A stretch of DNA of 61,091 bases, the filler included. It is 5 parts of 5 records of this genome, joined end to end, with 100 filler letters (N's around TTAATTAATTAA, not from the genome) between each part and the next. Parts side by side here need not be neighbours in the genome. Positions count along the whole stretch, not along the records: positions 40,614 to 53,945 come from SRR31147125_12941; 4 more parts are not named here. One strand, 5' to 3'. A program made the translations under genes and the position numbers. How positions within the stretch are numbered: position 1 is the stretch's first letter; each line of letters opens with the position of its first letter. This document shows positions 4,974-52,594 of the stretch, piece after piece. Below the pieces are notes generated by a model. It saw only the letters and a program-made list of their open reading frames with translations. It did no database searches and was not told where the DNA came from.

Positions 4974-4976
4974 GTT

Positions 4977-29569: not shown

Positions 29570-29590
29570 CCTCTTTAACAAAAAATATAA

Positions 29591-30585: not shown

Positions 30586-30615
30586 AAGTCCTCCCCCATA
30601 TACACAAACACACTA

Positions 30616-30890: not shown

Positions 30891-32533
30891 ACCCTATAAT
30901 CAACTCTTCTCTCAACATTTGTATCTAATCTCATAAGAGTTTCTTCAGCATTTACTATCGTTGTTTTCTCGTATAAATCTTCAACCCTTATTCCTACCAA
31001 GTTAAAACCTAAACTCTTTAGTTCTTCGCCTAAGGATGAAGCATGTTTTTTTATCAGGCTCGAAGCCTTTTTGTTTTCGTTGCTCATTTTTAATGATACA
31101 TTGTTCTTTTCAAATTTTACTAGCGTTTCTATTCTACCAAGATTCATAGTATCTAGACCCAACAGTATTGAAAAATTTTCACTATCTGCGTCATTTTTTT
31201 TGCTTTTTCTTCTATACACAAAAACCTCTGCTGTTTGTGTGTTTTGCTGATTACTAATAGGAATTTGCACATATGTGAACCTATTAATATCAGATTCAAT
31301 GCTTTTTTCCATAAGCGCACTCTCAGCCTTGGATAAAATAGCATCTTTATTTTTAATATCGGAGCTTTTCACCATCTCCTTTAATTCAGAAAGTTTGCTC
31401 TGCATTTCCTCTTTCGAATCAAATATCTTATTTCCATCGTTTTTTTCTGCATATATTTTATTAAACAAAGATAATACTTTAGTTAGTATCTTAGCTTCAT
31501 CGCTACTTTGTTTTGTAACATCCATCGTTTCAGACAAATTATTTACAACATTACCCGTATTTTGCTGCACCTTTTGTTGCTGCGCAGTGTCTTTTCCTTG
31601 TTCAGCTATGTTTATGCTATTAGTAGCTTGCGCTTCCTTGCCTGCTGTCTGATTACTATTACCTTGATTATTATTATCTACATTTACTTGATCATTAGAA
31701 TTATTCGCGACTTGATTAGGTTGCTGTCCTACATTTTCTGGTTGTCCTACATTTTGATTGTTATTTGTTCCGTCTATAGTTTGTGATGATTCGCTCACCA
31801 AACTAACATTTACCACTTGCGCTGTTACATTATTCGTTGCATTAGTTTGGGCACTTTGCTCATTTGGAACATTTGTATTTGCCACATTAGAATTTTTAGC
31901 ACCAGTAGCCGTATTGGCATTAGCAGCACTTGCATCAACAAGCTTTAAACCACTATCAATATTTTCATTTTGTGATATAATCTGATTGGCTATTTGAGTT
32001 AACTTCGCTCCAATATTGCTATCGAGCATATTGTTTACAGTTTCAATATTTTGAGCGGTAGGCTCAATATTATTTAACACCATAAAAATAGCCGCCCTTG
32101 GAGAAAGACCTTGGTTCTGCTGCAAAACATTCATCACATTATTCATCACTTGCGTACCAGGCTTCAACCCCATATTTTTAAAAATATGAGAAACCTGCGT
32201 TTCAAGATTTACAAATGGTTCAATTTGCAGATTGCTATTTTCTGTCTCAACCGTGCCTGCCGCAACAGTATTTAACTGCATCATAACTTGCCTGCCACTT
32301 TGTCCAAGTACAGTCATGTTTATCTCATCACCTAAAGATAAAATAACATCAGACATAACGTTAGCAACCATTCGTGTTCCGTCCGGTCTTTGCAGTGTAA
32401 TAATATCTCCATTTTTTGATACTACTTGAGCAATAACAGAATCACCATTATTCAGTTTTGGCATGTTACTGTTAGTATTATTATCATGTCTAATATTACT
32501 GTCAGTAACACGTATAGGAACATCAACTCTCAT
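30887..32533 (-). CDS. fliK: Flagellar hook-length control protein
   Basis: N/Q-rich disordered middle, C-terminal YVQIP...LDTMNLGRI switch domain, adjacent to the flhB-like gene. Confidence 0.8.
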   Translation of the reverse strand: MRVDVPIRVTDSNIRHDNNTNSNMPKLNNGDSVIAQVVSKNGDIITLQRPDGTRMVANVMSDVILSLGDEINMTVLGQSGRQVMMQLNTVAAGTVETENSNLQIEPFVNLETQVSHIFKNMGLKPGTQVMNNVMNVLQQNQGLSPRAAIFMVLNNIEPTAQNIETVNNMLDSNIGAKLTQIANQIISQNENIDSGLKLVDASAANANTATGAKNSNVANTNVPNEQSAQTNATNNVTAQVVNVSLVSESSQTIDGTNNNQNVGQPENVGQQPNQVANNSNDQVNVDNNNQGNSNQTAGKEAQATNSINIAEQGKDTAQQQKVQQNTGNVVNNLSETMDVTKQSSDEAKILTKVLSLFNKIYAEKNDGNKIFDSKEEMQSKLSELKEMVKSSDIKNKDAILSKAESALMEKSIESDINRFTYVQIPISNQQNTQTAEVFVYRRKSKKNDADSENFSILLGLDTMNLGRIETLVKFEKNNVSLKMSNENKKASSLIKKHASSLGEELKSLGFNLVGIRVEDLYEKTTIVNAEETLMRLDTNVERRVDYRV

Positions 32534-32704
32534 AACAAAAATCCATTCCTTTCGCTATAACCAATTATAACTTCAAAGTCACAATTAGTCATGAAAATAA
32601 AGTTATTTTCGTTAAACACCAAAAACAAAACTCATATAATCATAGCATACATATATCATATCTTACAATTTGCATGCTAATTATCTACAAAGTTACTCTT
32701 CGCA

Positions 32705-33163
32705 TTATTCCACATGCGTAGCCAAGACACTATCAATATCAATAATCATAACAATATCGTCATCAACTTTCCCCATGCCAAGCAACGCATTTTCATCAAC
32801 TATGGTACCATACTCCGGAACCTCTTCAACATCTTCGCTTGCAATATCCAAAACTTCTTTAACATCATCAACTATAACGCCACTAGCTTTCACACCAGAT
32901 TCCGTCTCTTGCTCTACAATAATTATTGATGTTAAATCATCGTATTCCTTTTCTTCAATACCCAATTTAAGCCTTAAATCAATAGTACGAATAACTTTAC
33001 CTCTAAGGTTTATAACCCCTTTAATATACTTAGGAGCTCTTGGCACTTTTGTTATGTGTATCATATTAATGATTTCTTTTACTCTTTCAATAGAAACAGC
33101 ATATTGCTCATCACATAAAACAAATGATAAGTATCTATCCTTTTTTATATTGTTTTCAGCCAT
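32705..33163 (-). CDS. cheW: Chemotaxis coupling protein
   Basis: ITKVPRAPKYIKGVINLRGKV and GVIVDDV motifs. Confidence 0.95.
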   Translation of the reverse strand: MAENNIKKDRYLSFVLCDEQYAVSIERVKEIINMIHITKVPRAPKYIKGVINLRGKVIRTIDLRLKLGIEEKEYDDLTSIIIVEQETESGVKASGVIVDDVKEVLDIASEDVEEVPEYGTIVDENALLGMGKVDDDIVMIIDIDSVLATHVE

Positions 33164-33397
33164 TCTTCATCCACCTCCATTTAATCCCCACATTACTTCT
33201 TTATATCAACAACAGGATAACCATCGTAACGATTACCCCATTGTGATACTATTTTCAAAGTGTAAAATCTAACACAAGCACAAAGCATTGACTTAAAACT
33301 ATCTACAATCAAATTACACTATAGCCTGTATAATAATTGTAATTTTTGTATAGGTATATCTAGCCAAAAATACTTTAGCCTATTTAAAAACAAGTAT

Positions 33398-33874
33398 TTA
33401 TTTTTCTTTAACTCTCTCAAGCTGCTTTAATTCACCAGAAGAAAGGATTTTATTTACATTCAAAAGCATAATAACTTTATCTTCTGCTTTGCCCATACCC
33501 ATAAGAAAATCTTGGTCTACATCTTGACCATATTGTGGTGGCGGTTCAATATTATCGGGTATTATATCCAAAACTTCTGAAACGACATCAACTATTATAC
33601 CGCTCGCCTTAATACCTTTGCTTGTTTCAATCTCAACAACAATAGTAGAAGTCTTTTCATCATACTCTCGCTTGTCAAGCCCAAATTTCAGCCTCAAATC
33701 AATAACAGGTATGATTTTCCCTCTTAAATTAACAACACCTTTAATAAACTTAGGCAACCTAGGCACATGGGTCATCTCTAACATACCTATGATTTCTCTT
33801 ACCTTTAAAATTGGTATTGCGTAATGTTCCTCACCTAACTCGAAAGTTAAATATTTGTTATTTTGTTTTTCCAA
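33398..33874 (-). CDS. cheW: Chemotaxis coupling protein (TTG start)
   Basis: KYLTF, VREIIG, GVVNLRGKIIPVIDLR and IEPPP motifs. Confidence 0.95.
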   Translation of the reverse strand: MEKQNNKYLTFELGEEHYAIPILKVREIIGMLEMTHVPRLPKFIKGVVNLRGKIIPVIDLRLKFGLDKREYDEKTSTIVVEIETSKGIKASGIIVDVVSEVLDIIPDNIEPPPQYGQDVDQDFLMGMGKAEDKVIMLLNVNKILSSGELKQLERVKEK

Positions 33875-34038
33875 AATATCACCACCGTTTTATTTTTTTA
33901 AAGGCTAATATAATGCAATTTTATGCAGTGCAATATTCTTTATTCGCCTTATAATATTTAAAAATTATTGTTTATATAAACAATATTATTAAATCATAAC
34001 ATTAAGTGCAAGTAAAATTTTCAAAAATGATCATTATT

Positions 34039-35973
34039 TTAAAACTCATCACTTGAATTCAGTGGTATTATTTCATCCAGCATTTTGTCCTTATCTTGTT
34101 CTTCGCCTTCAAAAACAATAGCCTCAGCCACTTCTTCACTTATATTTTCCGCTGTCGCATTTGTATCTCGAGTTTTTTTACTGACAAGCTTTTTAAATAG
34201 TTTGCTTTCAAATTTAAAGCCTTCAGAATCACCGTTAACCAACTTGTTTAACTCTTTAACAGCTTTTTCTAACGAAGTAGCTTGTGTTTGCATTTCGTTT
34301 GCAGAAGTCGCACTCTGTTCTGCTGTATTTACATTCGACTGAACAACCTTTTCCATTTGACCAATAGCCGTTGTTATTTGCTCGATACCCTTAGATTGCT
34401 CATCACTTGCTACCGTAATCTCACTCATTAACTGATTAACATCTTCTATCTTTGTTATAATTACTTTTAATGCATCGCTAACTTCATCACTCATAACAAC
34501 GCCTTGCTCAGATAATTCGATATTTCTATCGATTATTGCACTTGTATTCTTAGCAGCATCTGCACTCTTTTGTGCTAAATTTCTAACTTCCTGCGCAACA
34601 ACAGCAAACCCAAGCCCTGCGTCACCTGCTCTCGCAGCCTCAACAGCCGCGTTTAGAGCAAGCATGTTTGTTTGAAAAGCAATATCATCTATAACTTTTA
34701 TTATCTTCGAAATTTCTAAACTAGATGCTTTTAACTCATCCATAGATTCATTCATTTCCTTAACTTTAACAGATCCTTGAACTGCAGCTTGGCTGGCGTT
34801 TTCTGATAATTCGTTTGCTTGTTTTGTATTTTGAGCATTTTGCCTTACCATAGAGGATGTTTCATCCATAGTAGCAGATGTTTCTTCTATCGAAGCAGCC
34901 TGCTCTGTTGCACCTTCCGACAACTGATGCCCCGCACTAGCAAATTGATCTGATGTTACAGAAACTTGTTTCGAACCAGTACTGATTGTTTCTATGAACG
35001 AAACTAAGGTTGTGGATATTTTATTTAAAGAACCCATAACAAAAACACCAGCTATTAAGGATAAAACAATAGCTAATAAGATATAAATTGTTGACGTCTT
35101 AGTCTTATTCTCTGCCTCATCCGATAACTCTTCAAGCATCATGTTTTCATAAGCCTTAAACACAGAAGTTTTAGCTACAATTTCTTCCATGGTTGTTTTA
35201 CCAATATCTTTTTCCATTTCTGCAAAAAGATCATCTTCAGATTTATAACTCATCGACTTTTGTTTCAAGTCTATTTGCGAAAATGCAACGTTGTTCATCC
35301 AATCCTTAGAGACTTCTGTTAATTCTTCATCACCTATTCTATTAAGGCTAATTAGAGTTTCTTCTCTTCCTTCCACATAAGGTTCAAGAAAACTTTCATC
35401 TCCTGTTAACAAGTAGCCACGCATTCCTGTTTGCATACTTGCTAATGAGTATAGAATTTCATCTCTTAATTCGATATCGACTATTTTTTTTGCTTGTGCG
35501 ACAGCCAAATCCATTTTAGTCTTATCTGCTTTAGATGCAATTAATTCGTTTAACTCTGTTACAATCTTATTACTTTCGATGATTTCTTTTTGGATCATCA
35601 AATATTTGTCTGCGGCTTCTGCGTGCCATTTATCAGACTGTAGTTTAATATCCTCAAGTTTTTTCGTCTGAGATTCATCATCAGCAACAGTCTCTTCAAG
35701 ATTGCTCATTCTAGTGTCAAATTCTAAAGTAGCGTTATTAAATGCTACTTTATACTCTTGATTTGAAGTTGCCAAGTATCCTCTAAGTGCAGCTTCTTGT
35801 TCTATCATACTTAGAACAAGCTGTTCAGCATCACTAATAATTCCTTGAGCTTCATTTATCTTCACAGTGTTTTTGTTAAGACTCGAAATATTAAGAAAAA
35901 GTGTAAACGATAATGCAAGCATAATAATTAAAGTGCAAGCATATAGTATAATTAATTTAATTTTAATGTTCAT
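34039..35973 (-). CDS. Methyl-accepting chemotaxis protein with a CHASE3-type sensor
   Basis: Two TM helices, two RGYL(A/L)T CHASE3 motifs, and [20 protein letters not shown]. Confidence 0.95.
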
Positions 35974-36006
35974 ATTAGGCCTCTCTTAATCTATCAATAC
36001 AATCCG

Positions 36007-36453
36007 CTATTTGTTGTCTGATAAGACTTTATCAACATCCAAAACTATAATAGCATCATCTTGTAGTTTTCCTATACCGTATATAAAACTAGAATCAATC
36101 TTCGACTTTTTGCCAGAAGCTTTTTCAATGTTTTGATCATCAATCTCTATAACTTCATGAACAGTATCTACAATTATTCCATTAAGGCTCAGTTCATCTT
36201 CATCCCCAAACTCTACAATAATAATTGATGTCCTTTCATTATAAGCAATCTGTTCATAATCCAGACGAAGTCGTAAATCCATTATTGGAATAATTTTTCC
36301 TCTAAGATTAATGATACCATTCATATACTTTGGTAATTTGGGAACTCGAATTATTTCCATCATACCAATAATCTCTTTTGCTTGTAATATTGGGATACCA
36401 AAAGTTTCATCTCCAATATTAAATGTTAGAAACATATTGTTTTTTTTCGCCAT
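36007..36453 (-). CDS. cheW: Chemotaxis coupling protein
   Basis: GIINLRGKIIPIMDLR and GIIVDTV motifs. Confidence 0.95.
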   Translation of the reverse strand: MAKKNNMFLTFNIGDETFGIPILQAKEIIGMMEIIRVPKLPKYMNGIINLRGKIIPIMDLRLRLDYEQIAYNERTSIIIVEFGDEDELSLNGIIVDTVHEVIEIDDQNIEKASGKKSKIDSSFIYGIGKLQDDAIIVLDVDKVLSDNK

Positions 36454-36548
36454 ACCTTCACCACCGATACTTTGTTTTTTTGTATTGTTTATGTCTACTA
36501 TTTTATTGTATATAGTAGAAACTATTTATTCATAATATTATTTGATTA

Positions 36549-38702
36549 TTAATAATCACTATCTGAGTCTAGTGGAATAACTTCATCTGCCTTCACTTCA
36601 ATTGCTTCTACATCCACCTGCTGATCTAGTTTTTCTTCATCAGCGCTTCCTTTATTAAAATCCTCTTTTGCTTTATCCTTCTTTTGCTTTTTTATTTTTT
36701 CCCATACTTCGCTTAATTTCCAACGCCTAGACTTTTTTTGTCTATTTTTATTGTTTTTTTCTTTACGTACTTTTATTTTCCTCGCTTTTTCCTTAACCTC
36801 TTTTTTTACAGTCTCTCTTTCCTTTTCCAAAACCTCTTTCAAGTCCGATTTAGTCGCACCCTTAACAAGCTTGTCCAATTCTCCAACAACATATTTAAGC
36901 TGAGAAGCTTGACTGTTAAGATTTGTTGCTGCCGCCGAACTCTCCTCTGCCGCTCCTGCATTTGATTGTACAACTATCTCCATTTGCTCAATAGCTTTTG
37001 CTATCTGCTCAGTACCCTTAGTTTGTTCGTCACTAGCAGCCGATATCTCACTCATTAGGTGGTTAACGTCATTTGCTTTTTCAATGATTAAACTTAAAGC
37101 CTCATTAACTTCATCGCTAATCAAAACTCCCTGCTCTGACAATTTAATGTTTTTGTCTACAATGCTCTCTGTTTCACTTGCCGCTTCTGCGCTCTTTTGA
37201 GCCAGTCTTCTAACTTCCTGCGCAACAACAGCAAATCCAAGCCCTGCATCACCTGCTCTTGCAGCCTCAACAGCTGCATTTAAAGCCAGCATATTTGTTT
37301 GGAAGGATATATCATCAATTACTTTTATTATTTTAGAAATTTCCACACTGGATTTTTTAAGCTGCGCCATAGATTCAATCATCTTATCCATTTTTGCAGC
37401 ACCATCTTTTGCAGCAGCAGTAGTCTGCTCAGATAAATCGTTTGCTTGGTGTGTATTCTTCGCATTTTGTCTTATCATAGAAGCCGTTTCTTCCATTGTC
37501 GCAGACGTCTCTTCTATCGAGGCAGCTTGTTCTGCTGAACCTTCTGATAATTGATGGCTAGAGCTTGCTAGCTGTGCAGATGCACTGGATACATTTTCTG
37601 ACGAAACAGAAAGCGTATTTACATTTTTGGAGATAAGCTTAGCTATCGATCTTGAAATTATTATTACTAATAACACACCTAAAAGCACACTTGCCACACC
37701 TAAAGCTATGGCCATTACAAATGCCCTTACTATGTCGTTATTCATCTTTTCTTGCTGAGCTAGCGCCATTGTGTTTGACTTTTCCACAATTTCATCAGCC
37801 AACACATTAAGATACGCTTTTTCCTCGATTTGACTGTTTCTTAGGTCTTTAAACTTTTGGTATGCAGATAAGTAATCGTTAATATACGTGCTCACCATTT
37901 GTATAGAGCTTCGGTCTTCTTTTGCCTCTAAGTTAAAACCAAGCCACATGCACAATTCTCTTAATTCTTTTGCTTTTTCAGATAATTCCTCATCATACTT
38001 TTGTTCGCCAGTAAACCAGAAATTAAGTTCTGCCAGCATAATTTCTTGAGCTAAAACGACAGCATCACTATTTGCAACAACTTCATCGTATTCAACATTC
38101 ATAGTCGTTGCCATAAGTTCACCATCAAAAAATTCCGTTTTGCTTTTTTCAACCATTTCCTCGCTGAATTCTGTAAAATTCTTTTTCTGTCGTTTTTCTA
38201 CCGCTTCTAATTCTTCCTGAATAAGATATATATTTTTCTCCATCGCTGCAAAATAATCGTCATTTATATTCATATACGATTTGTATTTCGTGAATGATTC
38301 TTTATACCCAAAAAGACTAAGGCTCATTTCGGAAACTTCTGTTTTGTCAGCTTGAGAATCAAATAGTGAAAGCCCTTCATTTAATGCTTTTGCAGCTTGA
38401 GCAGTATATTTTTCTGCATTTTCGGCCGAAACCTCATCGCGAGTGTCAAAATAATCCATTGTCCATTTATTAACAAGCATGACATTTTGATTTATTAAGA
38501 TAACATTCTCTAAGCGTGCTTTACTATCTTTTATTTTTTTTAGTGTAGCCACTTCTAATGATACAACAGTAATTAACAAGACCAAAATAATAGAAAAACT
38601 AATAAAGAGTCTGGTTAAAAGCTTCATATCCCTTATTTTTCTGGAGAAACTAAAGCTTTTTAAACTCTTAAAATTTGTCTTTTTCACGTTACCTACCTCC
38701 AA
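36549..38702 (-). CDS. Methyl-accepting chemotaxis protein with a large helical sensor domain
   Basis: Two TM helices, [20 protein letters not shown], and a long Lys-rich C-terminal tail. Confidence 0.95.
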   Translation of the reverse strand: MEVGNVKKTNFKSLKSFSFSRKIRDMKLLTRLFISFSIILVLLITVVSLEVATLKKIKDSKARLENVILINQNVMLVNKWTMDYFDTRDEVSAENAEKYTAQAAKALNEGLSLFDSQADKTEVSEMSLSLFGYKESFTKYKSYMNINDDYFAAMEKNIYLIQEELEAVEKRQKKNFTEFSEEMVEKSKTEFFDGELMATTMNVEYDEVVANSDAVVLAQEIMLAELNFWFTGEQKYDEELSEKAKELRELCMWLGFNLEAKEDRSSIQMVSTYINDYLSAYQKFKDLRNSQIEEKAYLNVLADEIVEKSNTMALAQQEKMNNDIVRAFVMAIALGVASVLLGVLLVIIISRSIAKLISKNVNTLSVSSENVSSASAQLASSSHQLSEGSAEQAASIEETSATMEETASMIRQNAKNTHQANDLSEQTTAAAKDGAAKMDKMIESMAQLKKSSVEISKIIKVIDDISFQTNMLALNAAVEAARAGDAGLGFAVVAQEVRRLAQKSAEAASETESIVDKNIKLSEQGVLISDEVNEALSLIIEKANDVNHLMSEISAASDEQTKGTEQIAKAIEQMEIVVQSNAGAAEESSAAATNLNSQASQLKYVVGELDKLVKGATKSDLKEVLEKERETVKKEVKEKARKIKVRKEKNNKNRQKKSRRWKLSEVWEKIKKQKKDKAKEDFNKGSADEEKLDQQVDVEAIEVKADEVIPLDSDSDY

Positions 38703-40613: not shown

Positions 40614-40658
40614 AAAATTTAATGATTTTTAATCACTTTTTGTCGAAAAGGCATAATA

Positions 40659-42012
40659 TTATGCCAACTTGTTTCTGTTTTCATATATTTTTGTGATTGC
40701 TGCAATAATATCATCCATATCCTTTTTGTTTCCAAGCAGTGTTTGCTGGGAAAACCAGACGGATTCTGTGATCAGTTTTTCATTTTCCGGGCAATCCAGA
40801 TTTTTTCGATACGTTGATAATTGTTCTTGTGAATAGATCTTTTGAAAAGCGGGTGAATCTAGTGTGTCCTCGATAAAAAGTTCTTTATTGAGAGCTGTTC
40901 CATATCCTTTGGAACATGATATGCCCTCAGCCCGCAATGCTTTGATAAAGTTATCACGCGGTATATTGTTAAAATGCTCTTTATTATAGCGCATCGCATA
41001 CAAATGATAAGCGGAACGTGTTGTGCCTTTATAAAATTTTTGTGGATTTATTCCGGGAATCTGTTTCAGGTGATCCGTTAGATAGGATCCGTTTTCATTT
41101 CTTATTCTGGCCTGCTCTTCTGCCCGTTCCATCTGGGAAAGCATAATAGCCGCCTGAAAAGCAGTCATTCTATATTTCGTTCCTAATCTGACATAACCAC
41201 TCACATTTAATTCACTACCGGCAGCACGGCCAAAGTTATGAAAGGAGAAACATCTGTCCATCAGGTCTTTGTCTTCTCCGATAATGGCGCCTCCTTCTCC
41301 ACAATTGATGTTTTTGGAACCCTGAAAACTGAAACAGCCAAGATCGCCAAAATTTCCCAGTTTTTTATTTTCCCACTCTCCCATATGTGCCTGACAGGCA
41401 TCTTCAACAATTTTGAGATTGTGTTTTTTTGCAATGGCCTGGATTTTATCTATATGCACAGGTGCACCCAGAATATCCACCGGCATGATCGCTTTTGTAT
41501 GTTTTGTGATTTTGGCTTCAATTTTTGCGGGATCCAATTGATAGGTCTCGGGATCAACATCGACAAAAACAGGTAATGCGTTACACAAAAAGATGGCATC
41601 AGCAGAGGCAACAAAGGTATAGACAGACACCAGCACTTCATCTCCGGCACCTATACCCAGACTGTATAATGAGGTGTGTAATGCCTGAGTTCCGGATTGT
41701 GTGCCAAGGCAATATTTTGCACCCATTAAATCCGCGAATTTTTCTTCAAATGTGGTAACGGTTTTACCTCCAAAGCGACCCCATTGACCGCTGTTTAAGG
41801 CCTTTAATAACGCGGTTTCATCTTTTTTATCCCATACAGGCCAGGAGGGAAACGATTTTTTTCTGACAGGTTCTCCGCCAAGAATGGCCAACTTTTGAAC
41901 TCGCCTGGAATTTTGCAGTGGAGCTGGAAAAAGCTTTTGATGTGACAGCTGCCATGGTACCAACAGACGCTGTAGCCAAAAATTGCCGTCTGCTAAAGTC
42001 TTTTTGTGTCAT
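40659..42012 (-). CDS. DegT/DnrJ/EryC1/StrS PLP aminotransferase with a Tat signal peptide (frameshift at about 41895)
   Basis: MTQKDFSRRQFLATA twin-arginine leader with a GGAGG RBS; SGTQAL, EDACQAH and FSFQGSKNINCGEGG motifs. Confidence 0.9.
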
Positions 42013-42239
42013 GAAGTGACCTCCCGGATATTGAAAAAAATAATTGCTTTAATGATAATATTTCAAAAATGAGATTATATTAGGATACATAATAAATAAT
42101 TATATGTCAAGAATATTCAGACTTTAAAAAAGGGGAAAAATTTGATAAGAAACATGATTTTTGAAATCTTGGCTCGCACACGACTGTTTCATTTAGTGTA
42201 GCTTAATTCTGGTTTTTTAAATTAAAAATTCAATTTTAC

Positions 42240-42268
42240 TTGACATTTTTCAACAAGTTGAGTAATAT
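42240..42268 (+). promoter_or_regulatory. sigma-70-type promoter for the kor/hdr operon
   Basis: TTGACA-N17-TAATAT. A divergent TTGACA at 42110-42105 would serve degT. Confidence 0.55.
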
Positions 42269-42403
42269 AAAAAGAACAAGTTATCCCTATCTTTTATATG
42301 AAACTCTATTGTTACATAAAATACCATAGAATGTCTTATCCGCAAAACAATTCTTTATTCCTGCGGGAGATGATATACGAGAGAAAATGTAAAGATTAAA
42401 AAG

Positions 42404-42572
42404 TAAGCGATCGGTCCACAGCCTTGAGTCTTGTGACTATCAAGCTCTGTAAATGGCACTGAAATTCGGATGGATTACTTTTAAAAGAATGAAAAGAGTC
42501 GGAACTGGTGATTAGAGCCGGGCTGCGTTATCTGTCAGATCAATGATAGGTTTAGTGGACCGGCTTTTTTTG
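42404..42572 (+). ncRNA. Candidate structured 5' leader RNA or attenuator (unassigned family)
   Basis: TCGGTCCAC/GTGGACCGG closing stem, internal hairpins, and an alternative AGAGCCGG/CCGGCTTT stem followed by T7. Confidence 0.5.
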
Positions 42573-42597
42573 TTTCTATTAATAATTGGAGATAGAG

Positions 42598-42882
42598 ATG
42601 AAATTTTGGCGAAAACCTTTTGATGCCGATACTATTAAAATTCCACATGGAGAATTACACATCATTAAAGATAGATGTAAAGGGTGTGGGTTTTGTGTCA
42701 CCTATTGTCCGAAAAGTGTTCTGGAAATGTCCGATGAATTTAACAGCAAGGGGTATCATCCTCCCAGGATTATTGATGAAAATCAGTGTGTTAATTGTGA
42801 CCTGTGCGAAATGATTTGTCCTGAATTTGCAATTTTTAGCATAAGAAAAGAAGAACCGGACACACAAAATGTGGAGTTGTAA
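42598..42882 (+). CDS. korD: 2-oxoacid:ferredoxin oxidoreductase delta subunit (2x[4Fe-4S])
   Basis: CKGCGFCVTYCP, NSKGYHPP and CVNCDLCEMICPEFAI motifs. Confidence 0.9.
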   Translation: MKFWRKPFDADTIKIPHGELHIIKDRCKGCGFCVTYCPKSVLEMSDEFNSKGYHPPRIIDENQCVNCDLCEMICPEFAIFSIRKEEPDTQNVEL

Positions 42883-42884
42883 AC

Positions 42885-44054
42885 ATGGAGCAAAAATTGA
42901 CAGCAGATCCCATTAACGTTTTAGAGGGAGCTCATTTTTTTGATGGGGATACAGCTTGTGCTGAAGGTGCCATAGCAGCCGGTTGTCGATTTTTTGCCGG
43001 TTATCCCATCACTCCATCAACAGAGGCTGCAGAACGAATCTCCCAACGGTTTCCACAAGTAGGGGGTATGTTTATACAGATGGAGGATGAACTTGCCTCT
43101 ATGGCTGCTCTTGTTGGCGCTTCCTGGGGTGGAGCTAAAACAATGACTGTCACGTCCGGCCCGGGTTTCTCCCTTATGATGGAGAATATTGGACTTGGTG
43201 TTATGATGGAAACGCCGTGTGTGGTCGTGAATGTACAGCGGGGAGGACCTTCCACCGGTTTACCAACAATGGTTGGCCAGTCCGATGTTATGCAGGCACG
43301 ATGGGGATCTCACGGGGATTATGAAATTATCGCCCTTTCTCCGAATTCGCCTCAGGAGGCCTTTGATTTTACCATCAAGGCTTTTAATTTGGCAGAAAAA
43401 TACAGAGTACCTGTTTTAATATTAATGGATGAATGCGTAGGCCATATGACAGAACGAGTGCTGGTTCCTTCTGCGGATTATATTGAACTTTATCCAAGAC
43501 GATATACAAAACTTCCCCCTGGTGAGTATTGGCCATACGTCCCGAGCGAGGATCTTATTCCGGATATGGTGAAAGCCGGCGAAGGCTATCGAATCCACAC
43601 CACAGGTCTGACCCATGATGAGCGAGGATATCCTCTCATGAGTGTGGATGCACAGGCCAAATTGGTAAAACGATTGGTAGATAAGATAAGTAAAAACAAA
43701 GATGATATAATAGATATTGAAGAGAGGAATATAAAAGGAGCAGATGTCATTGTCGTGGCTTATGGTATTACTTCCAGAGTTTGTCAGCCGGCCATAGAAA
43801 AGGCAAACAAAAAAGGTGTTAAAACCGGGTTTTTAAAATTGAATACGATCTGGCCGTTTCCTGAAGCGCGTATTCGGGAATTGGCATTTTCGGTTCAGAC
43901 TTTTGTGGTACCAGAAATAAACCTGGGGCAACTCGCTCTGGAAGTGGAGCGTTGTGCGGCAGGACAGGCAAAGATTTTAAAAGTCTCTCATGCAGGCGGT
44001 TCCGTTCATGACCCTGAAAACATATTTAACATGATTATGGAGGGCGTCAAGTGA
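42885..44054 (+). CDS. korA: 2-oxoacid:ferredoxin oxidoreductase alpha subunit
   Basis: FAGYPITPSTE, QMEDE, TSGPGFSLM and QRGGPSTGLPT motifs. Confidence 0.95.
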   Translation: MEQKLTADPINVLEGAHFFDGDTACAEGAIAAGCRFFAGYPITPSTEAAERISQRFPQVGGMFIQMEDELASMAALVGASWGGAKTMTVTSGPGFSLMMENIGLGVMMETPCVVVNVQRGGPSTGLPTMVGQSDVMQARWGSHGDYEIIALSPNSPQEAFDFTIKAFNLAEKYRVPVLILMDECVGHMTERVLVPSADYIELYPRRYTKLPPGEYWPYVPSEDLIPDMVKAGEGYRIHTTGLTHDERGYPLMSVDAQAKLVKRLVDKISKNKDDIIDIEERNIKGADVIVVAYGITSRVCQPAIEKANKKGVKTGFLKLNTIWPFPEARIRELAFSVQTFVVPEINLGQLALEVERCAAGQAKILKVSHAGGSVHDPENIFNMIMEGVK

Positions 44055-44925
44055 AAGAAATGCCAAAACATGAAGAACACCCAATGGAAGCCTTACTACG
44101 TATGGATAGAATTCCGCATATTTGGTGCTCAACCTGCGGGATTGGTACGGCTGTTTCCTGTTTTATCGATGGTTTGCGGAAAAGTAATCTGGAGTCAAAA
44201 GATGTGGCTGTCGTATCCGGTATAGGGTGTACAGGTCGAGTTGCTGGTTATCTGTTTTTAGATTCATTTCATACAACCCATGGTAGAGCATTACCTTTTG
44301 CAACGGGTTTACATCTTTCAAATCCGGAATTGAAAGTAGTTGTTTTTAGCGGTGATGGCGATTTGATTTCCATTGGTGGGAACCACTTTATTCACTCGGC
44401 TCGTCGTAATATGAACCTCACGATTATTTGTGTTAATAATTTTAACTATGCCATGACCGGCGGCCAATTAGCACCCACAACTCCCAGTCTGGCATTGAGT
44501 TCCACATCTCCGTATGGAAACTTTGAGCATCCCTTTAATCTACCCTTATTAGCCGCGTCAAGCGGCGCTGTTTATGTCGCACGATGGACATCTTTACATA
44601 TCCGACGTTTGAGCAAATCGATCACTGAGGCTTTGCAAAAAAAGGATTTTCATTCATTGAAGTCATATGTCCCTGCTCAACTCTTTATGCCCGCAGGAAT
44701 AAACTTGGTTCTGGTCTCGATTTGATGAAATTTTATCATGATAATAGTGAAATCAGGCATGGTGCGGACCCAAAAGACCTGGATATCGAATTTCAAAAGA
44801 AAATTATCGTCGGTAAATTTATTGATATTGAAAAACCAACTTTTCTGGACATGTATAACAACAGAATGCAGCATGTGCTGGGCGAAAAGTATCATCTTTA
44901 TGGCAGCAAAGAGGAAAAAAGGTGA
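44051..44925 (+). CDS. korB: 2-oxoacid:ferredoxin oxidoreductase beta subunit (frameshift at about 44640)
   Basis: WCSTCG, SGIGC, HTTHGRA, GDGD and GGNH motifs. It continues KKGFSFIEVICPC after a lost A. Confidence 0.92.
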
Positions 44926-45139
44926 CACCAAAAGTTCCCGAACCTGAAGCTGTGTCGTCTTGATAGTGCATGGAAAAGTAATATTATCCTTTGATAACGC
45001 AAAAGGTTTTGTTTAATAAACCAGAGTACGAGATTGCTTCTCTAATAGATGTGAATCATGAAATAGTTACTATATGAGTGGGTTTTTATGTGTCATAATA
45101 TAATAATTTTAATAAATTAAACTATGACAAGGATGGATT

Positions 45140-45709
45140 ATGAGCAGGACAGAAATCCGTGTTTCCGGATTCGGCGGTCAGGGAATCATTCTAAGTGGCC
45201 GAATAATAGGTATGGCCGCAGCCATTTATGAGAGTAAGCAGGCAACATTTAATCAAAGTTATGGTCCCGAAGCCCGCGGAAGTGCTTGCAGTGCACAGGT
45301 TGTTGTGTCTGATGAAATGATCCATTACCCCTATGTATCAAAAGTGGATATCCTTCTGGCCATGTCTCAGGAGGCTTGTACGAAATTTGCGCCGGAACTC
45401 GTGACAGGCGGTTTACTTCTTTTGGAAAAGGATCTTGTCAAAATGCAGAACGTACCGGAACATCTTGTCTGTTATGCTATACCTGCTACTCGCATAGCGG
45501 AAGATTTAGGAAGAAAGATTATTGCCAATATCGTCATGCTTGGATTTTTTACATCCATGGCAGATCTGTTTAAATTGGAATCCATGCATCAGGCCATGCT
45601 TTCATGCGTACCCAAGGGAACCGAGGAATTAAATTTAAATGCCTTTAATGCAGGTTATGAGTATGGACAAAAACTAAAAAAATCCTCCCCGGTAGAAAAG
45701 GTTGGGTAA
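45140..45709 (+). CDS. korC: 2-oxoacid:ferredoxin oxidoreductase gamma subunit
   Basis: SGFGGQG, QSYGPEARGSA and ANIVMLG motifs. Confidence 0.93.
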   Translation: MSRTEIRVSGFGGQGIILSGRIIGMAAAIYESKQATFNQSYGPEARGSACSAQVVVSDEMIHYPYVSKVDILLAMSQEACTKFAPELVTGGLLLLEKDLVKMQNVPEHLVCYAIPATRIAEDLGRKIIANIVMLGFFTSMADLFKLESMHQAMLSCVPKGTEELNLNAFNAGYEYGQKLKKSSPVEKVG

Positions 45710-45715
45710 AGGATT

Positions 45716-46174
45716 ATGACAGAAATTAATTTTGATTTTAAAGATATACTGGATAAGGTTATAGGTGGGAACGGTCACAGTTACTGTTTTCAATGTGGCG
45801 CTTGCGTGGGAGACTGTCCGGCTGCCCGTTATTCAGAGAGATTTAATCCGCGTCTCATCATGCATATGGCTATATTAGGCCAACACGATGCGCTTTTAGC
45901 AGAGGATTCGGTTATTTGGGAGTGCACCAATTGTTATAATTGTTATGAGCGATGTCCACAGGATGTTCGTCCTGTGGAAGTCATTATGGCACTTAAAAAT
46001 ATTATTGCTTCTCAACATAAAAGTCCTGAAAAAGTGAAAATGATGGTAGCAGCTGTGCTTGATAATGGTCGTACGGTCGTGTTGTCTCCTGCAGTACAGC
46101 GAATCAGGGAAGAATTGGGTTTAAATCCTGTAAAAGAAACAGCGGTTGAAGAATTAAGAAAGATTCTAAAATGA
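45716..46174 (+). CDS. hdrC: Heterodisulfide reductase subunit C
   Basis: CFQCGACVGDCP and IWECTNCYNCYERCPQ motifs. Confidence 0.9.
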   Translation: MTEINFDFKDILDKVIGGNGHSYCFQCGACVGDCPAARYSERFNPRLIMHMAILGQHDALLAEDSVIWECTNCYNCYERCPQDVRPVEVIMALKNIIASQHKSPEKVKMMVAAVLDNGRTVVLSPAVQRIREELGLNPVKETAVEELRKILK

Positions 46175-47072
46175 ATCAAAAAAGTGGCGATTATATCCCC
46201 TTTTGGGGTTGTATGATATCGTTAAAATATCCCCAGTTTGAAGCAGCTATACGCAAAACTGTTGGCTCATTGGGTATGAATTTGATTGATGTAGATGGTT
46301 TTACCTGCTGCCCGGATCCAATCTATTTTAAATCATCTAACAAGCTCGATTGGCTTACGATCGCTGCCAGAAATCTCTGTCTTGCGGAAGAAAAAAGCTG
46401 GATATCATAACCATGTGCAGTGGATGTACTGCTACATTATCGGAGGCCCGACATTTATTACAACATGATTCGGCACTTTTGACAGAAATAAATAAAAGAC
46501 TTGGAAAAATTAATAAAGAGTACAAGGGGACGAGTTCTGTCCGGCATATCGTGACTGTTTTGCGGGATGATGTGGGTATGGATCGTATAAGTCAGACTGT
46601 TACTCACCCCCTTGAAGAAATGCGTGTTGCCATTCATTATGGTTGTCATTTGTTGAAACCGAGCAAAATTATGCATGTGGATGATCCGGACAGACCTACT
46701 ATTTTAGAGGATTTAATTGCTGCGACTGGAGCCAGGTCTTTAGAACATGAAGAACGAATTTTGTGCTGTGGCAAAGCCTGTGAGAATCCGGATTTACCTC
46801 CAAAAATGACATTTGATGTTCTTCAATCCATTAAAAAGAGCGAGAGTGATTGTATGTGCCTTATTTGTCCCACATGCTTTGATGAATATGATCTTGGTCA
46901 AATTCGACTGTCACGATTGTTTAAAACAACTTTTAATATCCCTGTTTTATATTATTTTCAGATGCTGGGATTAGCTCAAGGTTATTCAGCTGAAGAACTG
47001 GGATTGTACCGGCATAAAATAAAACCAGATCAATTTGTAGCTAAAATGAAAACAAGCAAATTGATTGTATAA
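46171..47072 (+). CDS. hdrB: Heterodisulfide reductase subunit B (frameshift at about 46393)
   Basis: FWGC, FTCCPDP, AARNL, CSGC, HYGCHLLKP, CCG and CPTCF CCG-domain motifs. Confidence 0.9.
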
Positions 47073-47139
47073 AATATTTCAAAAGAATTAATTAACTTTT
47101 AAATAAAATCATATTTATTCATTCAGGAGGAGCCAAACT

Positions 47140-48228
47140 ATGTCAATTTTAGTTGATGATGGAAAATTGCTGAATTTTACTGAAAGAGTTTTTCAAACTT
47201 TTGAATTGAGCAAAAAAGATGCCCTTATTTGTTCTGATAACCTTTTGTCCGCGGATTTGAGAGGTATTCCATCTCATGGCGTAGCCCGGCTTAAAAGATA
47301 TGTTGATGGCATAAAGAATGGGTTGATTTACCCTTTGAATAAACCTCAAATCGATAGAGAATCCTTTTCCACAGCTACGATCGATGGCAATGCCGGTCTT
47401 GGCCAGGTTGTCGGCTATTTTTCCACCAAATTGGCTATAGAAAAAGCAAAGGAAAGTGGTGTAGGAATTGTGACTGTACATAATAGTAATCACTATGGAA
47501 TAGCCGGCTATTATGCGGAGATGATTTTAAATGAAAATATGCTTGGCATTTCCATGACTAATTCGGCACCTCTGGTTGTACCCACGTTTGGCCGTGAAAT
47601 GATTATCGGCACAAATCCCATTAGTCTGGCAGCTCCGACAAAAAAGAATCGCCCATTTTTTCTTGATATGGCTACGTCTGTTGTACCCAGAGGAAAGTTG
47701 GAAGTTTTTGATCGTGAGGAAAAAGCAATGCCTGAAGGTTGGGCTGTCAATGCAAAAGGTAAAACAACGACAAGCGCCAGTGAGGTTCTGCAAAATATGC
47801 TTAGTCGGCTTGGCGGTGGTATTTTACCCCTGGGTGGAGAAGGAGAGCTTTTCAGGGGATATAAAGGGTATGGAATGTCGCTACTCGTGGACATTCTCTC
47901 AGGAGTGCTTTCAGGTGGGGCTTATGCCAATTTGGTTAATATGAAAAAAGATGGCAAACCTGCACCGGCAAATGTGAGCCATTTTTTCATGGCGCTGAAA
48001 ATTGAAAGTTTTATTGATATAGATACTTTTACCACGAAAATGGATGATCTCATTGACCGTTTAAAAAATTCATCAAAGGCTGAGGGACAGGAGCGGATTT
48101 ATATTCATGGTGAAAAAGAATATGAATTTTATGAAAAACATAAAAAAGAAGGCGTGCCTCTGCAGGAAAAGGTATATGATACACTAAAAGCAATTGCTGA
48201 TGAAAGAGGAATCTCATTTGATATATAA
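47140..48228 (+). CDS. Ldh2/ComC-family NAD(P)-dependent 2-hydroxyacid dehydrogenase
   Basis: DLRGIPSHG, SNHYGIAG, GTNPI, DMATS, LPLGG and YKGYG motifs. Confidence 0.92.
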   Translation: MSILVDDGKLLNFTERVFQTFELSKKDALICSDNLLSADLRGIPSHGVARLKRYVDGIKNGLIYPLNKPQIDRESFSTATIDGNAGLGQVVGYFSTKLAIEKAKESGVGIVTVHNSNHYGIAGYYAEMILNENMLGISMTNSAPLVVPTFGREMIIGTNPISLAAPTKKNRPFFLDMATSVVPRGKLEVFDREEKAMPEGWAVNAKGKTTTSASEVLQNMLSRLGGGILPLGGEGELFRGYKGYGMSLLVDILSGVLSGGAYANLVNMKKDGKPAPANVSHFFMALKIESFIDIDTFTTKMDDLIDRLKNSSKAEGQERIYIHGEKEYEFYEKHKKEGVPLQEKVYDTLKAIADERGISFDI

Positions 48229-48310
48229 CATTTTGATCTATGCTCTGTAAATGAGCAGGAAAAGCCATTGATATAAACGATAAAGGAACATCTGTTTAAT
48301 TGATTTGTAT

Positions 48311-48350
48311 TTAGGCCATCCATCAAAATGTTGGATGGCCTGAAGCTTTT
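48311..48350 (+). terminator. Hairpin, probable terminator or processing site after ldh2
   Basis: TTAGGCCATCCA...TGGATGGCCTGA followed by AGCTTTT. Confidence 0.65.
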
Positions 48351-48397
48351 ATAATTTTGATGCTCATTTTTAGAGTTTCAATTATCAGAGTATTCAA

Positions 48398-48760
48398 ATG
48401 AAACCCATTATACAAAAGACAAGTTTTGGCTCTATTACCATTGCCAAAAGTGTATATGAGCATGATGTGATTATTCGTCTGAATGGTAAAGTGGAAAAAC
48501 GGAAGAAAAAGTTATCAAAAAATATCTATGGAACATCTCATGTGATTTCGTTAGATGAAGCCAAATATGTTTATGAAAAAGGTGCGAAAAAACTCATTAT
48601 AGGGACAGGACAGTCCGGTATGGTCAAACTCTCCGATGAGGGAGCTGACTATTTTAAACGAAAAAAATGTCAGGTACAACTACTTCCAACACGAGATGCA
48701 ATGAACGCCTGGAATGAAGCTCAAGGTGACATTAATGCCTTGTTTCATGTTACGTGTTAA
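48398..48760 (+). CDS. Mth938/DUF498-like protein
   Basis: FGSITI, YGTSH, IIGTGQSG and ALFHVTC motifs. Confidence 0.88.
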   Translation: MKPIIQKTSFGSITIAKSVYEHDVIIRLNGKVEKRKKKLSKNIYGTSHVISLDEAKYVYEKGAKKLIIGTGQSGMVKLSDEGADYFKRKKCQVQLLPTRDAMNAWNEAQGDINALFHVTC

Positions 48761-48808
48761 GATAATGAGCGCTTTTGTGTAACCTGTTTTCAAAAAAAGG
48801 AGGCCTTC

Positions 48809-51800
48809 ATTATTAAGTCAAAAGAAGAAAAAGGTGTCCTCGTATTAGGTGGTGGAATCGCAGGTATTCAGGCAGCACTGGATTTAGCTAACTCTCAGGT
48901 TAAAGTTTATCTGGTTGAAAAATCGCCGAGTTTAGGCGGACGAATGGCCCAGCTGGATAAAACTTTTCCGACAATGGATTGTGCTATATGAATCCTGGGT
49001 CCGAAGATGATGGATGTCGGTCGACATCCAAACATTGAGCTTTTCACTCACTCGGAATTAAAAGGACTTGATGGTCGTGCAGGAGATTTTATCGCAACCG
49101 TGCTTCGCCATCCCGGTTATGTCGATGAATCTCTTGCACCGGATGTGGAGATTGTGCCGCAAACTGTCCAAAAGTTGTGCCTAATGAGTTCGATTGTGGC
49201 CTTGGGGCACGCAAGGCCATCTATCGCCCCTTTGCCCAGGCTGTCCCCAATGTTTATGTGCGAGATCTTGAAACCTGTATTAATAAAAAGTTCAAGACGA
49301 TCCGTTGCCACCATTGTGAAAAAGCATGTCTCCAAAAAGCGATTAATTATGATATGGCTCCCAGGGAATTTCAAATCCCGGTTGGTGCTGTTATCGTCGC
49401 TATTGGCGCTGATGTTTATGACCCGTATGAAATGAAGTCATATGGATACAGTGTATCCCCAAATATCCTCACAGGTCTCGAGTTTGAACGCCTCTTAAAT
49501 GCATCCGGTCCTACCAAAGGAAAAATTCTTCGACCTTCAGATAAAAAAAGCCCGAAAAAAATCGCATTTGTTCAGTGTGTCGGTGTCAGAGGAGAGAACG
49601 ATCGGCAGTATTGTTCGCGTTTTTGTTGCATGAATTCCGTAAAAGACGCGTTGCTGGTAAAGGACCATCTGCCTGAAATCGAAAAGATGACCATATTTTA
49701 TTCAGATATAAGATGTTTTGGTAAGGGATACGAATCATTATATGTCCGGTCATTAGAACGTCCGGAAATAGATTATGTGCGTGGCAAGCCATCAAAAATT
49801 ACTGAATGCCCGGATAGCGGTGATTTAATCATATATGTGGAGAACACACTAACTGGCCGTCCTGAAAAAGTTCAGGTTAATATGGTCGTTTTGGCATCTG
49901 CTGCCGTACCACATGCTTCAGGAAAACAGTTAGCTGAAATTCTCGGAGCTGAACTTGACCATAGTGGGTTTTTTGCCAGTAAAAATGGGTCATCAGAACT
50001 ATTATCCAGTACTCGTGAAGGTGTTTATCTTTGTGGCTGTGCCAAAGGCCCTGAGGATATTCCGGAATCAGTTGCGCAGGGATCGGGTGCTGCTGCCCTG
50101 GCTGAAAAATTCGTTCAGGATAACCGACTCCCGGTAATCGAGGATGAAATATTACAGGTAAATACAGATGGACCTCCGCGAATTGGTGTTTTTCTATGCC
50201 ATTGTGGCATTAATATCGCTGGTGTCCTGGATATTTCACGAATTCAGGATTATGTAAAAACCTTACCCGGTGTTGTCCATGTTCAAAACGATCTTTTTCT
50301 GTGCTCAGATGGGAGCCAAAAAGAATTACAGCAAAAAATTGGTGAAAAAAAGTTGAACCGGGTTATAGCTGCCGCTTGTACACCCCGCACACATGAACCA
50401 ATCTTTCAGGAAACCTGTTCCCGGGTTGGATTAAATCCATATCTTTTCGAAATGGCGAATGTGAGAGATCAATGTTCATGGGTGCATTCTCTTGAACCGG
50501 AACTGGCAACAAAAGAGCCATGGATCAGATCAGAATGGCTGTCTCCCGATCCTCCTGGTTGCAACCATTACCGAAAAAAGAGATTAAGGTGGAACAGGCG
50601 GTCCTGGTTGTTGGCGGTGGAATGGCAGGCATTCAGAGTGCTTTGAGTTTGGATGCTCAGGGCATACCTGTTTATCTTGTGGAAAAGGAAGCACAGCCTG
50701 GCGGGCGGATGCGAATGCTGGAAACCGTTGTCCCCGATAACAAGCAGGCCAATATCATTCTGAATGAAAAATTGGCTGAATTAAAGAAAACGAATGTTCA
50801 TATATATCTTAATACGGATGTGACGAAAATAAGTGGTTACATAGGTAACTTTGAGGTTGAAACAACAAAAGCATCCTTTAAAGTTGGCGCCATCATCCTG
50901 GCATTTGGTGCAGATGTTTACAAGCCAACAGGTGAATTTCAATATGGCAGAATGAAAAACGTGCTTACCAATTATGAGCTGGAAGAACTTTTTGCTAAAT
51001 CAGCTACGTTGGCAATAGATAATAAGCCAGTAGAAAAAGTTGCCTTTATCCAATGTGTCGGCTCGCGAGATCCGGAACGTCATTCGCATTGTTCCCGTAT
51101 ATGTTGTGATGTCACTGTCAAACAAGCTACAACTCTTGTTCAACAGGGGAAACATGTAACTGTATTTTATCGCGATATGCGTACGGTCGGTCACGGTGCT
51201 GAAGAAATGTACCGCCAGGCACGAGGATTAGGGGTTCGCTTTATTCGTTGCCCGGATGATAAAAAACCAGTTGTAAAAAAGTCCCGGGACAGGTGCATCA
51301 TAAGTGTTCATGATGCTATGCTTGGCGGGAAAGTGGAAATGAATGTAGATGCGGTCATTCTGGCAACCGGTATGATTCCATCTGCAACACAAATGGAAAA
51401 GTTTAAGGAATTGCTCAAGATTACCCATAGCCCGGATGGTTTTTTGATGGAACGTCATCCAAAGCTGGGTCCTGTAGAAACCTTTGTAGATGGGGTTTTT
51501 GCCTGTGGATGTGTACAAAGCCCTCAGGGTATTGGTGACTCTATGGCGCAAGCCAATGCCGCGGCAGCCAAAGCGGCACTGTTGGTGAGCCGGGATACTA
51601 TTGATATTTCACCAACGACCTGTGTGGTTAACGAAGAAAAGTGTCGTGGCTGTGGATATTGTGTGTCAATTTGCGAATTTCATGCTCCGGAACTCATTGA
51701 AAAGGGCGATGGTGTTTTCGTCGCCACTATAAATGAAGCCATGTGCAAAGGATGCGGTACCTGTGCTGCCTGGTGCCCAACAGATGCCATCATCGCCAAA

Positions 51801-51881
51801 CATTTTACAGACAGACAAATCGAATCCATGCTGGATGCCATGCTGACAGGTACGGTAACAGTGGGGCTTGAGGTGGATTGA
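48809..51881 (+). CDS. hdrA: Large tandem heterodisulfide reductase subunit A, selenocysteine-containing (UGA 48989-48991; frameshifts at about 49136 and 50512)
   Basis: [18 protein letters not shown]...[29 protein letters not shown]; ferredoxin insert; YCSRFCC; internal [10 protein letters not shown] domain; second GGGMAG FAD domain; C-terminal 2x[4Fe-4S]. Confidence 0.9.
49011..49030 (+). promoter_or_regulatory. Bacterial SECIS-like hairpin
   Basis: TGGATGTC-GGTC-GACATCCA, a perfect 8-bp stem with a G-first loop, 27 nt after the in-frame UGA. Confidence 0.8.
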
Positions 51882-51997
51882 AAATAATTAGCATAAACAA
51901 CCCCTAAATGTTTGTATGTTATCTGCTATGTTAAAACTGGATTATGAGAGAGTTGTCTTTTAGGGATCATTAATAACCTTCATCAAAGGAGAATAAA

Positions 51998-52522
51998 ATG
52001 AAACCCTTAAAAAGTGCGTTTGCAATTCCTGGTTTTATTAGTTTTTTGTTATTGTTATGTCTGGTTTTTAATTGTCAGCAGCCAGCAGGTGTAAGTAAAG
52101 CTGAAGAAGAAATGAAAGCCCTTGTCAGTCAATCTCTGGACGTTTGGAATAAGGGTGATTTTGAGCTTATGAACAAGCTTTTTTCACCCGAGTATGTGCG
52201 CCATGAGGTCGATATCTACGAGGATATTGTGGGTTTGGATTCGTTAAAAAAACACGTTACTTTTTTTAGAACAGCCTATCCAGATTTTAATGTCGTAATG
52301 GATGAATTAATCGCCAAAGAAGATAAAGTAATATTGCGCTGGACATTAACAGGCACAAATACAGGCCCACGTGGCGATGAGCCACCCACTGGAAAAAAGA
52401 TAAAAATTTCCGGTTGCAGTATTTCCCGTGTTGTCGAAGGGAATGTGACAGAGGAATGGGTCTATTATAATCAAGTAGCGGCTCTTATACAACTTGGTTA
52501 TGTAATTTCACCTCCACAGTAA
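51998..52522 (+). CDS. SnoaL-like ester cyclase-fold lipoprotein
   Basis: Signal peptide ending VFNC; WNKGD, AYPDF and W...GTNTG...PPTGKKI motifs. Confidence 0.85.
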   Translation: MKPLKSAFAIPGFISFLLLLCLVFNCQQPAGVSKAEEEMKALVSQSLDVWNKGDFELMNKLFSPEYVRHEVDIYEDIVGLDSLKKHVTFFRTAYPDFNVVMDELIAKEDKVILRWTLTGTNTGPRGDEPPTGKKIKISGCSISRVVEGNVTEEWVYYNQVAALIQLGYVISPPQ

Positions 52523-52594
52523 AAGTAAACGAAAATTAAAGTTGCCTGGACGCGTTGTTGAATGTGTTAATAGAAATGGAAAACATTAGCTAAA

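Follow-up and report, generated by a model that had tools for sequence, protein, structure and literature searches.

The element analyzed here lies in a window of 61,091 nt, by which we mean the whole stretch of DNA that was analyzed; the window consists of five joined parts, and the part that holds the element (40,614-53,945) is SRR31147125_12941. The element occupies a 585-nt intergenic gap, which is flanked by a DegT-type aminotransferase gene on the minus strand and by korD on the plus strand. korD opens a 10-kb operon in which it is followed by the genes for the alpha, beta, and gamma subunits of a 2-oxoacid:ferredoxin oxidoreductase, and then by genes for an HdrB/C-like protein, an Ldh_2-type dehydrogenase, a DUF498 protein, an HdrA-like protein, a SnoaL protein, MvhD, and a further HdrB/C-like protein. 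The alpha-subunit gene, directly after korD, matches the NCBIfam model PRK08659 (2-oxoacid:acceptor oxidoreductase alpha) with 570.6 bits against a cut-off of 411 and stays below the NCBIfam cut-off for 2-oxoglutarate synthase (375 vs 579). Because only the general cut-off is passed, 'kor' is used here as a working name. The coordinates of the features are collected in Table 1.

Table 1 Features of the korD leader and their positions in the window.
Feature	Positions	Strand	Description
Sigma-70-like promoter	42240-42268	+	TTGACA, 17-nt spacer, TAATAT; 10 of 12 matches
5' leader	42275-42597	+	About 323 nt ahead of korD
Candidate antiterminator strand	42392-42431	+	Complements 42544-42578 (terminator 3' arm, U-tract, anti-SD strand)
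Small hairpin	42418-42450	+	Present; z -0.57, 50 of 200 shuffles fold equally well
Fast-changing spacer	42470-42498	+	10 substitutions in 29 nt in the relative
Conserved block	42499-42560	+	62 nt, 0 differences in the relative; 15-nt 5' flank and most of the terminator hairpin
Terminator hairpin	42515-42566	+	Stems of 7, 4, and 8 bp; 19 pairs, 4 of them G-U
U7 tract	42565-42571	+	Overlaps the last two pairs of the stem; common to the next hairpin
SD-masking hairpin	42567-42598	+	U-tract and UGUUUCUA paired with UGGAGAUAGAGA
korD	42598-42882	+	Ferredoxin-like delta subunit, first gene of the operon; Pfam Fer4 families

The leader region was found in four sequencing runs, with no RNA run among those listed. 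One of them (X1) contains a near-identical contig and may be its source; the other three (X2, X3, and X4, from two studies) contain one and the same relative, which is about 92% identical and counts as one lineage. The X1 contig has one letter fewer than the window at 41928, within an A-run; without this letter, the ATG at 42012, which has GGGAGG ahead of it, is in frame with the DegT-type ORF at 40659-41963, so the gene probably starts at 42012 and the window bears a one-base homopolymer difference. Within the operon, the beta-subunit ORF ends at a TGA stop (44723-44725) after 224 codons, and a 67-codon ORF in another frame (44722-44925) seems to be its continuation; the frame break is either an assembly error or real. 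A 214-nt AT-rich gap follows the beta-subunit ORFs, and the gamma subunit begins at 45140. HdrA2 is matched by two ORFs that overlap each other, 49177-50646 (model positions 257-564) and 50520-51881 (model positions 312-641), and a third ORF, 49007-49435, overlaps the first of them; the ORFs at 49007-51881 could be two paralogues, the product of frame breaks, or a gene with an in-frame TGA read as selenocysteine.

The gene content at 951-7266 and 27945-38702 is Bacillota-like (mannosylglycerate hydrolase, a fructose-type PTS EIIC, a PRD/Mga-type regulator, FliD, and two chemotaxis receptors), and the Atlas clusters nearest to the FliD of the window are mostly from Bacillota. The kor genes, in contrast, are closest, among the matches listed, to genomes from phyla other than Bacillota, so the operon may have been acquired by transfer. 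When KorA was scanned against 185,579 species genomes, the identity reached at most 74% among the at least 600 matches listed. A scan of a metagenome collection with KorD gave 227 matching stretches, 163 of which encode a relative; the best 80 of these, with identities of up to 83%, were used. korD precedes korA in 79 of 80 genome loci.

The first-pass annotation had described a TTGACA promoter at 42240 followed by a leader of about 330 nt. The hexamer is there, with TAATAT 17 nt later, and the length comes to about 323 nt if transcription starts near 42275, as the promoter sequence suggests. The region 41800-42900 contains 8 promoter-like sites against 3.6 ± 2.0 in shuffled sequences, and the site at 42240-42268 is the only one on the plus strand before korD that leaves room for a leader. 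From 42322 to korD, the promoter scan found no plus-strand promoter-like site. Since there is no such site between the hairpin described below and korD, transcription of korD must pass through the hairpin.

At the 3' end of the leader, a stem of AGAGCCGG and CCGGCTTT that runs into T7 had been proposed as a terminator-like structure. This stem is present, and it forms the base of a longer hairpin. With its tail (42514-42572), the hairpin has a predicted energy of -26.4 kcal/mol (z -5.09), a value that none of 200 shuffles reaches, while the minus strand of the same stretch folds with only -11 kcal/mol (z -0.61). The G-U content of the stem together with the weak fold of the minus strand indicates an RNA structure of the plus strand, in agreement with the earlier remark that the G-U pairs favor this strand. 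To rank the hairpin, both strands of the window were scanned for runs of at least five T preceded by a helix, which gave 69 sites at -10 kcal/mol or better; the hairpin is the strongest of these (-25.7 kcal/mol, with the runner-up at -21.2 kcal/mol). A consensus terminator scan missed it because only simple loops of 3-8 nt were allowed. The hairpin lies 26 nt ahead of the korD start codon and has the features of an intrinsic terminator, namely a stable, G+C-containing stem-loop on the transcribed strand and a U-tract directly after the stem, and its sequence predicts termination at the U7. A canonical hairpin followed by T6 lies directly after the stop codon of the ORF at 19821-20312 on the minus strand, indicating that the organism uses canonical terminators elsewhere.

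A second hairpin, which the first-pass annotation did not mention, follows immediately and shares the U-tract. It covers the Shine-Dalgarno sequence GGAG (42588-42591) and the A of the korD AUG, and consists of 12 pairs, five of which are G-U. Its predicted energy is -9.6 kcal/mol (z -3.86; 0 of 200 shuffles as good). The hairpin is marginally stable and places a pyrimidine strand opposite the Shine-Dalgarno sequence, the arrangement expected of a sequestered ribosome-binding site. The two hairpins jointly (42514-42602) reach -36 kcal/mol with z -6.30.

For the part of the leader upstream of the terminator, the first-pass annotation had drawn a long-range helix between 42411-42419 and 42555-42563. 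We found CGGTCCAC (42412-42419) and GTGGACCG (42555-42562) to be 100% complementary over 8 nt, with one additional U-G pair, and the long-range complementarity exceeds the 9 bp originally described. The core duplex, 42405-42430 with 42545-42566, has 20 pairs and -23.0 kcal/mol, which is equaled by 5 of 1000 dinucleotide shuffles of the upstream leader and by one of 267 other 224-nt pieces of the window. When the duplex is extended to the candidate antiterminator strand and its full complement, including an A-run, the energy is -27.0 kcal/mol (9 of 1000 shuffles, 0 of 267 pieces). Because three targets were tried, the resulting p of about 0.005 to 0.01 should be taken as roughly 0.02 to 0.03. 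When the long-range helix is forced, the folds come out 1.8 to 4.8 kcal/mol less stable than the minimum free energy fold, which would allow a switch between the two.

All the other base pairings that had been named are present as well, including TTATC/GATAG, and two of them are no better than chance. The small hairpin at 42418-42450 does form, yet shuffled sequences fold equally well too often for it to stand out (Table 1). Likewise, GCUCU (42444-42448) can pair with AGAGC in the 5' arm of the terminator and so sequester it, but upstream pairing with this arm is matched by 308 of 1000 shuffles. The 181-nt element as a whole has a modest structure (z -2.18; 7 of 200 shuffles as good). In the window, the minimum free energy fold is a three-way junction with an A-run/U-run extension; we dropped it as a conserved form, since two of its five changed pairs break in the relative, the minimum free energy fold of which is the plain hairpin. 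The window also forms a 9-bp hairpin of 42473-42482 with 42492-42500.

The comparison with the relative separates the leader into parts that behave very differently. The relative aligns at 41934-42270 with 30 differences and at 42438-44000 with 114 differences in 1563 nt (7.3%). Between these aligned pieces, 167 nt of the window (42271-42437) are swapped for 150 letters without an alignment at 80%, which means that the part supposed to be the aptamer is not conserved. The counts for the leader are of differences listed, in a list that leaves out those within about 32 nt of the ends of the aligned pieces (42438-42469 and 42239-42270) and has 106 further rows that appear to lie beyond 42561. Downstream of the fast-changing spacer comes the conserved block, and the chance of an unchanged run of its length is about 0.01 at 7.3% divergence and negligible at the rate of the neighboring 29 nt. 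Immediately after it, a C-to-T change at 42561 turns a G-C pair into a G-U pair, and the hairpin is kept at -24.2 kcal/mol. The T-run is T7 in the X1 contig and T6 in the relative. A small palindrome, ATCTG-T-CAGAT, lies at 42530-42540 inside the conserved block. In the spacer, five of the ten substitutions (42472, 42485, 42486, 42489, and 42491) together make a perfect 9-bp hairpin in the relative (42471-42492) that is absent from the window. Of the central hairpin that the long-range fold would enclose, three of the five changed pairs are broken. With no change in 42499-42560 and a non-alignable or variable sequence upstream, the conserved unit, as judged from this alignment, is the terminator hairpin with the 15 nt ahead of it, rather than a riboswitch-type domain of 150 nt. 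On the promoter side, 42203-42238 has no difference among those listed. The stretch 42013-42238, upstream of both divergent promoters, shows 14 listed differences over its 226 nt, plus two one-letter losses, and is much better preserved than 42271-42498 in the transcribed leader.

Several other candidates in the leader were considered. Two small ORFs (42298-42399 and 42453-42515) have no Shine-Dalgarno sequence; the first falls in the part of the leader that is non-alignable in the relative, and the second, of 20 codons, acquires a stop through the change of the relative at 42486. We thus found no translated short ORF over the switch strands, as ribosome-mediated (leader-peptide) attenuation would have. 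A sigma-54-like sequence, TGGCAC-N5-TTCG at 42454-42468, was dropped because the GC of the sigma-54 motif at -12 reads CG there. GGA motifs of the CsrA type were also rejected; by eye, the relative lacks two of the five.

In a search of the whole window with Rfam 15, no match reached its gathering score and no described aptamer class was matched, so the element is undescribed in that library, as the first-pass annotation had supposed. Its by-eye verdict that the leader is no T-box also agrees with the search, in which no T-box match appeared even at E up to 10. At that threshold, the region 42000-42650 gave three Rfam matches with E of 2.6 to 7.5, which we take as noise. The best of them, gltS RNA (RF02982; 42319-42409, plus strand), scores 20.6 bits (E 2.6), where the gathering score is 47.5, and lies upstream of the conserved part. 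Twenty related loci (107,014 bases) yielded nothing usable in Rfam.

Homologues of the leader were sought with both DNA and RNA models. With blastn against 80 and then 166 related loci, the leader gave only matches of 16-42 nt with E of 0.25 or worse. A DNA search with 42430-42597 of 167 genomes from the phylum of G002, a set that includes the unpublished genome G160, gave matches of 16-41 nt, the best with an E of 0.002 per genome, which is the level of chance. A covariance model built solely from the window sequence of 42499-42575 matches only itself in the window, has no match with an E of 1 or below when run on 100 of the 166 loci, and gave two matches at E 0.01 (28 bits) in 151 genomes, where about 1.5 would be expected by chance. 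These tallies rest in part on G160, and the 151-167 genomes belong to the phylum of the best KorA matches among those listed, which is probably not the phylum of the window itself, since FliD matches in none of the 167 genomes and its nearest Atlas clusters are mostly from Bacillota. In the literature, a search for an orphan riboswitch found none at the level of titles and the beginnings of abstracts, a level that gives no proof of absence in print. As far as can be seen from the sequences compared, the element is restricted to one genus-level lineage.

We also asked how often a terminator precedes korD at other loci. With a finder that requires a T-run of at least five behind a helix of -12 kcal/mol or better, and with the antisense strand as the control, 154 distinct korD loci with at least 250 nt upstream gave 25 sense and 13 antisense helix-plus-T-runs. 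In 13 of the 154, the locus carries an unrelated hairpin of its own, and the T-run behind it begins 20-90 nt ahead of korD. Terminators in the leader of this operon are thus a recurring feature of a minority of lineages, and their sequences are unrelated. Three metagenome loci, L096 (2204-2503), L106 (2204-2503), and L099 (2203-2496), share another conserved leader in front of korD, about 250 nt in length. This leader combines a TTGAAT / TATAAT-type promoter with a long hairpin and a T7-8 run that lies about 60 nt ahead of the start codon, and Rfam has no match to it in any of the three.

From these data, we propose that the element is a lineage-restricted transcription attenuator with an added translational mask, relieved by the upstream strand, and we put the probability of this reading at roughly 0.5. 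Transcription from the promoter would meet the terminator hairpin and the U7 and, unless something kept the hairpin from forming, would mostly end there. In the transcripts that read through, the U-tract and the strand after it would fold onto the Shine-Dalgarno sequence and the start codon and mask them. Relief would most likely come from pairing of 42392-42431 with 42544-42578, by which one long-range helix may undo both hairpins. A protein or small molecule, a second RNA, or temperature could decide between the two folds. The attraction of relief by this strand is that both hairpins would go with one helix. The case is weakened by the position of the strand in the part that is non-alignable in the relative, while its partner at 42544-42560 is unchanged, and a conserved switch strand should have aligned. 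Alternatively, the unchanged 42499-42513 may mark the site of a protein acting on the hairpin and could be a protein-dependent antitermination site. The attenuator half of the earlier reading, which had the leader as an attenuator or riboswitch-like element, is thus supported: a strong terminator-like hairpin stands on the plus strand, 26 nt ahead of korD, and no promoter-like site follows it; the hairpin is unchanged in one relative apart from the pair-preserving substitution at 42561, and an upstream strand complements its 3' arm beyond chance. The riboswitch half is not supported by the relative, in which 42404-42437 is non-alignable, 10 of the 29 positions at 42470-42498 are changed, and the central hairpin is mostly broken at its changed pairs.

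If the element were nevertheless a true riboswitch, a domain of approximately 42405-42566 would bind a small molecule that stabilizes the long-range helix and turns the operon on. The near-equal energies of the two states and the long-range helix beyond chance would fit such a device, and the class would be new because no known family matches. The would-be aptamer is the least conserved part of the leader, though, and a conserved aptamer is not what the relative displays; the inner hairpin at 42418-42450 is not above chance, and no homologue was found in the 166 related loci or in the 151 genomes (RNA model) and 167 genomes (DNA query) of what is probably the wrong phylum. We consider this reading quite unlikely. 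The chances are just as slim for the most far-reaching version of it, in which 42392-42598 is a new ON switch whose one helix dismantles both the terminator and the mask of the ribosome-binding site and is set by a metabolite or redox signal tied to the 2-oxoacid:ferredoxin oxidoreductase / heterodisulfide-reductase-like operon; if true, it would be an orphan riboswitch class so far in one genus only. The opposite view is that nothing is regulated, and that the hairpin is a constitutive partial terminator or a stabilizing or processing structure that fixes expression, with the complementarity due to chance. This would account for conservation that is limited to the hairpin and its near flank, for the rest of the leader changing at about the rate of the fastest sites, and for a p-value of modest size once the three tests are corrected for. 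Placed before a promoterless 10-kb operon, on the other hand, a U7 terminator of -26 kcal/mol would largely silence it, and a plain terminator would not need 42499-42513 to be unchanged, so we regard an unregulated structure as unlikely.

Two further explanations would take the element away from leader control. The distance of about 300 nt between promoter and terminator, and a hairpin with a U-tract, which is the usual 3' end of small RNAs, would suit a separate small RNA of about 295 nt (42275-42571) that is ended by the terminator, with korD expressed through leakage only. The body of such an RNA would be the non-conserved part, korD would be without a promoter of its own, and the U-tract is complementary to the korD ribosome-binding site, which ties the element to korD in cis; we therefore think a small RNA very unlikely. 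A DNA-level element, such as an operator or a roadblock site for a transcription factor, would be in keeping with a conserved block that contains a palindrome. As DNA, however, the repeat is imperfect owing to the G-U pairs of the stem, the minus strand folds poorly, and the sole change in the stem, at 42561, keeps the RNA pairing, all of which makes this explanation highly improbable.

As it stands, the attenuator is one more lineage-restricted leader terminator, useful for the annotation of the operon. If the switch is real, it would show how an anaerobe, once transcription is under way, gates a large operon devoted to 2-oxoacid oxidation and Hdr-type electron transfer, with a compact design in which a single U-tract serves both the terminator and the mask of the ribosome site.

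Leader terminators are a common form of cis-control in Bacillota, where the terminator/antiterminator leaders include riboswitch expression platforms, T-box leaders, and leaders controlled by PyrR or PRD proteins. The korD leader resembles them in having a promoter, a long leader, and an intrinsic terminator just before the ribosome-binding site of the first gene, as well as an upstream strand that can pair with part of the terminator, giving an alternative fold that excludes the terminator and is close to it in energy. It differs in having no recognizable sensor part and no Rfam match, and in that the competing strand, which is not conserved in one relative, takes the 3' arm of the terminator, whereas for most attenuators known, the target is the 5' arm. 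Sites for antitermination proteins were sought through Rfam, which includes a model of the PyrR binding site and gave no match, and by eye with the motifs of PRD/RAT, ANTAR, TRAP, and HutP. In the ON-type pbuE/ydhL adenine riboswitch, a closing helix that excludes the terminator turns the gene on, as the long-range helix would do here. The korD leader has no homology to it and no conserved junction, and the whole 5' arm of its terminator would sit inside the closed domain. The masking hairpin recalls the FourU thermometers, for example that of the Salmonella agsA leader; unlike in these, the U-run of the korD leader also serves as a terminator tail, and none of the thermometer families in Rfam matches. 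As in the FourU thermometers, the Shine-Dalgarno sequence is paired with a U-run, and the resulting hairpin is weak and rich in A-U and G-U pairs. The sequence itself is undescribed in Rfam, but the kind of system is well known, and one U-tract serving both a terminator and a ribosome-site mask is not unprecedented in principle.
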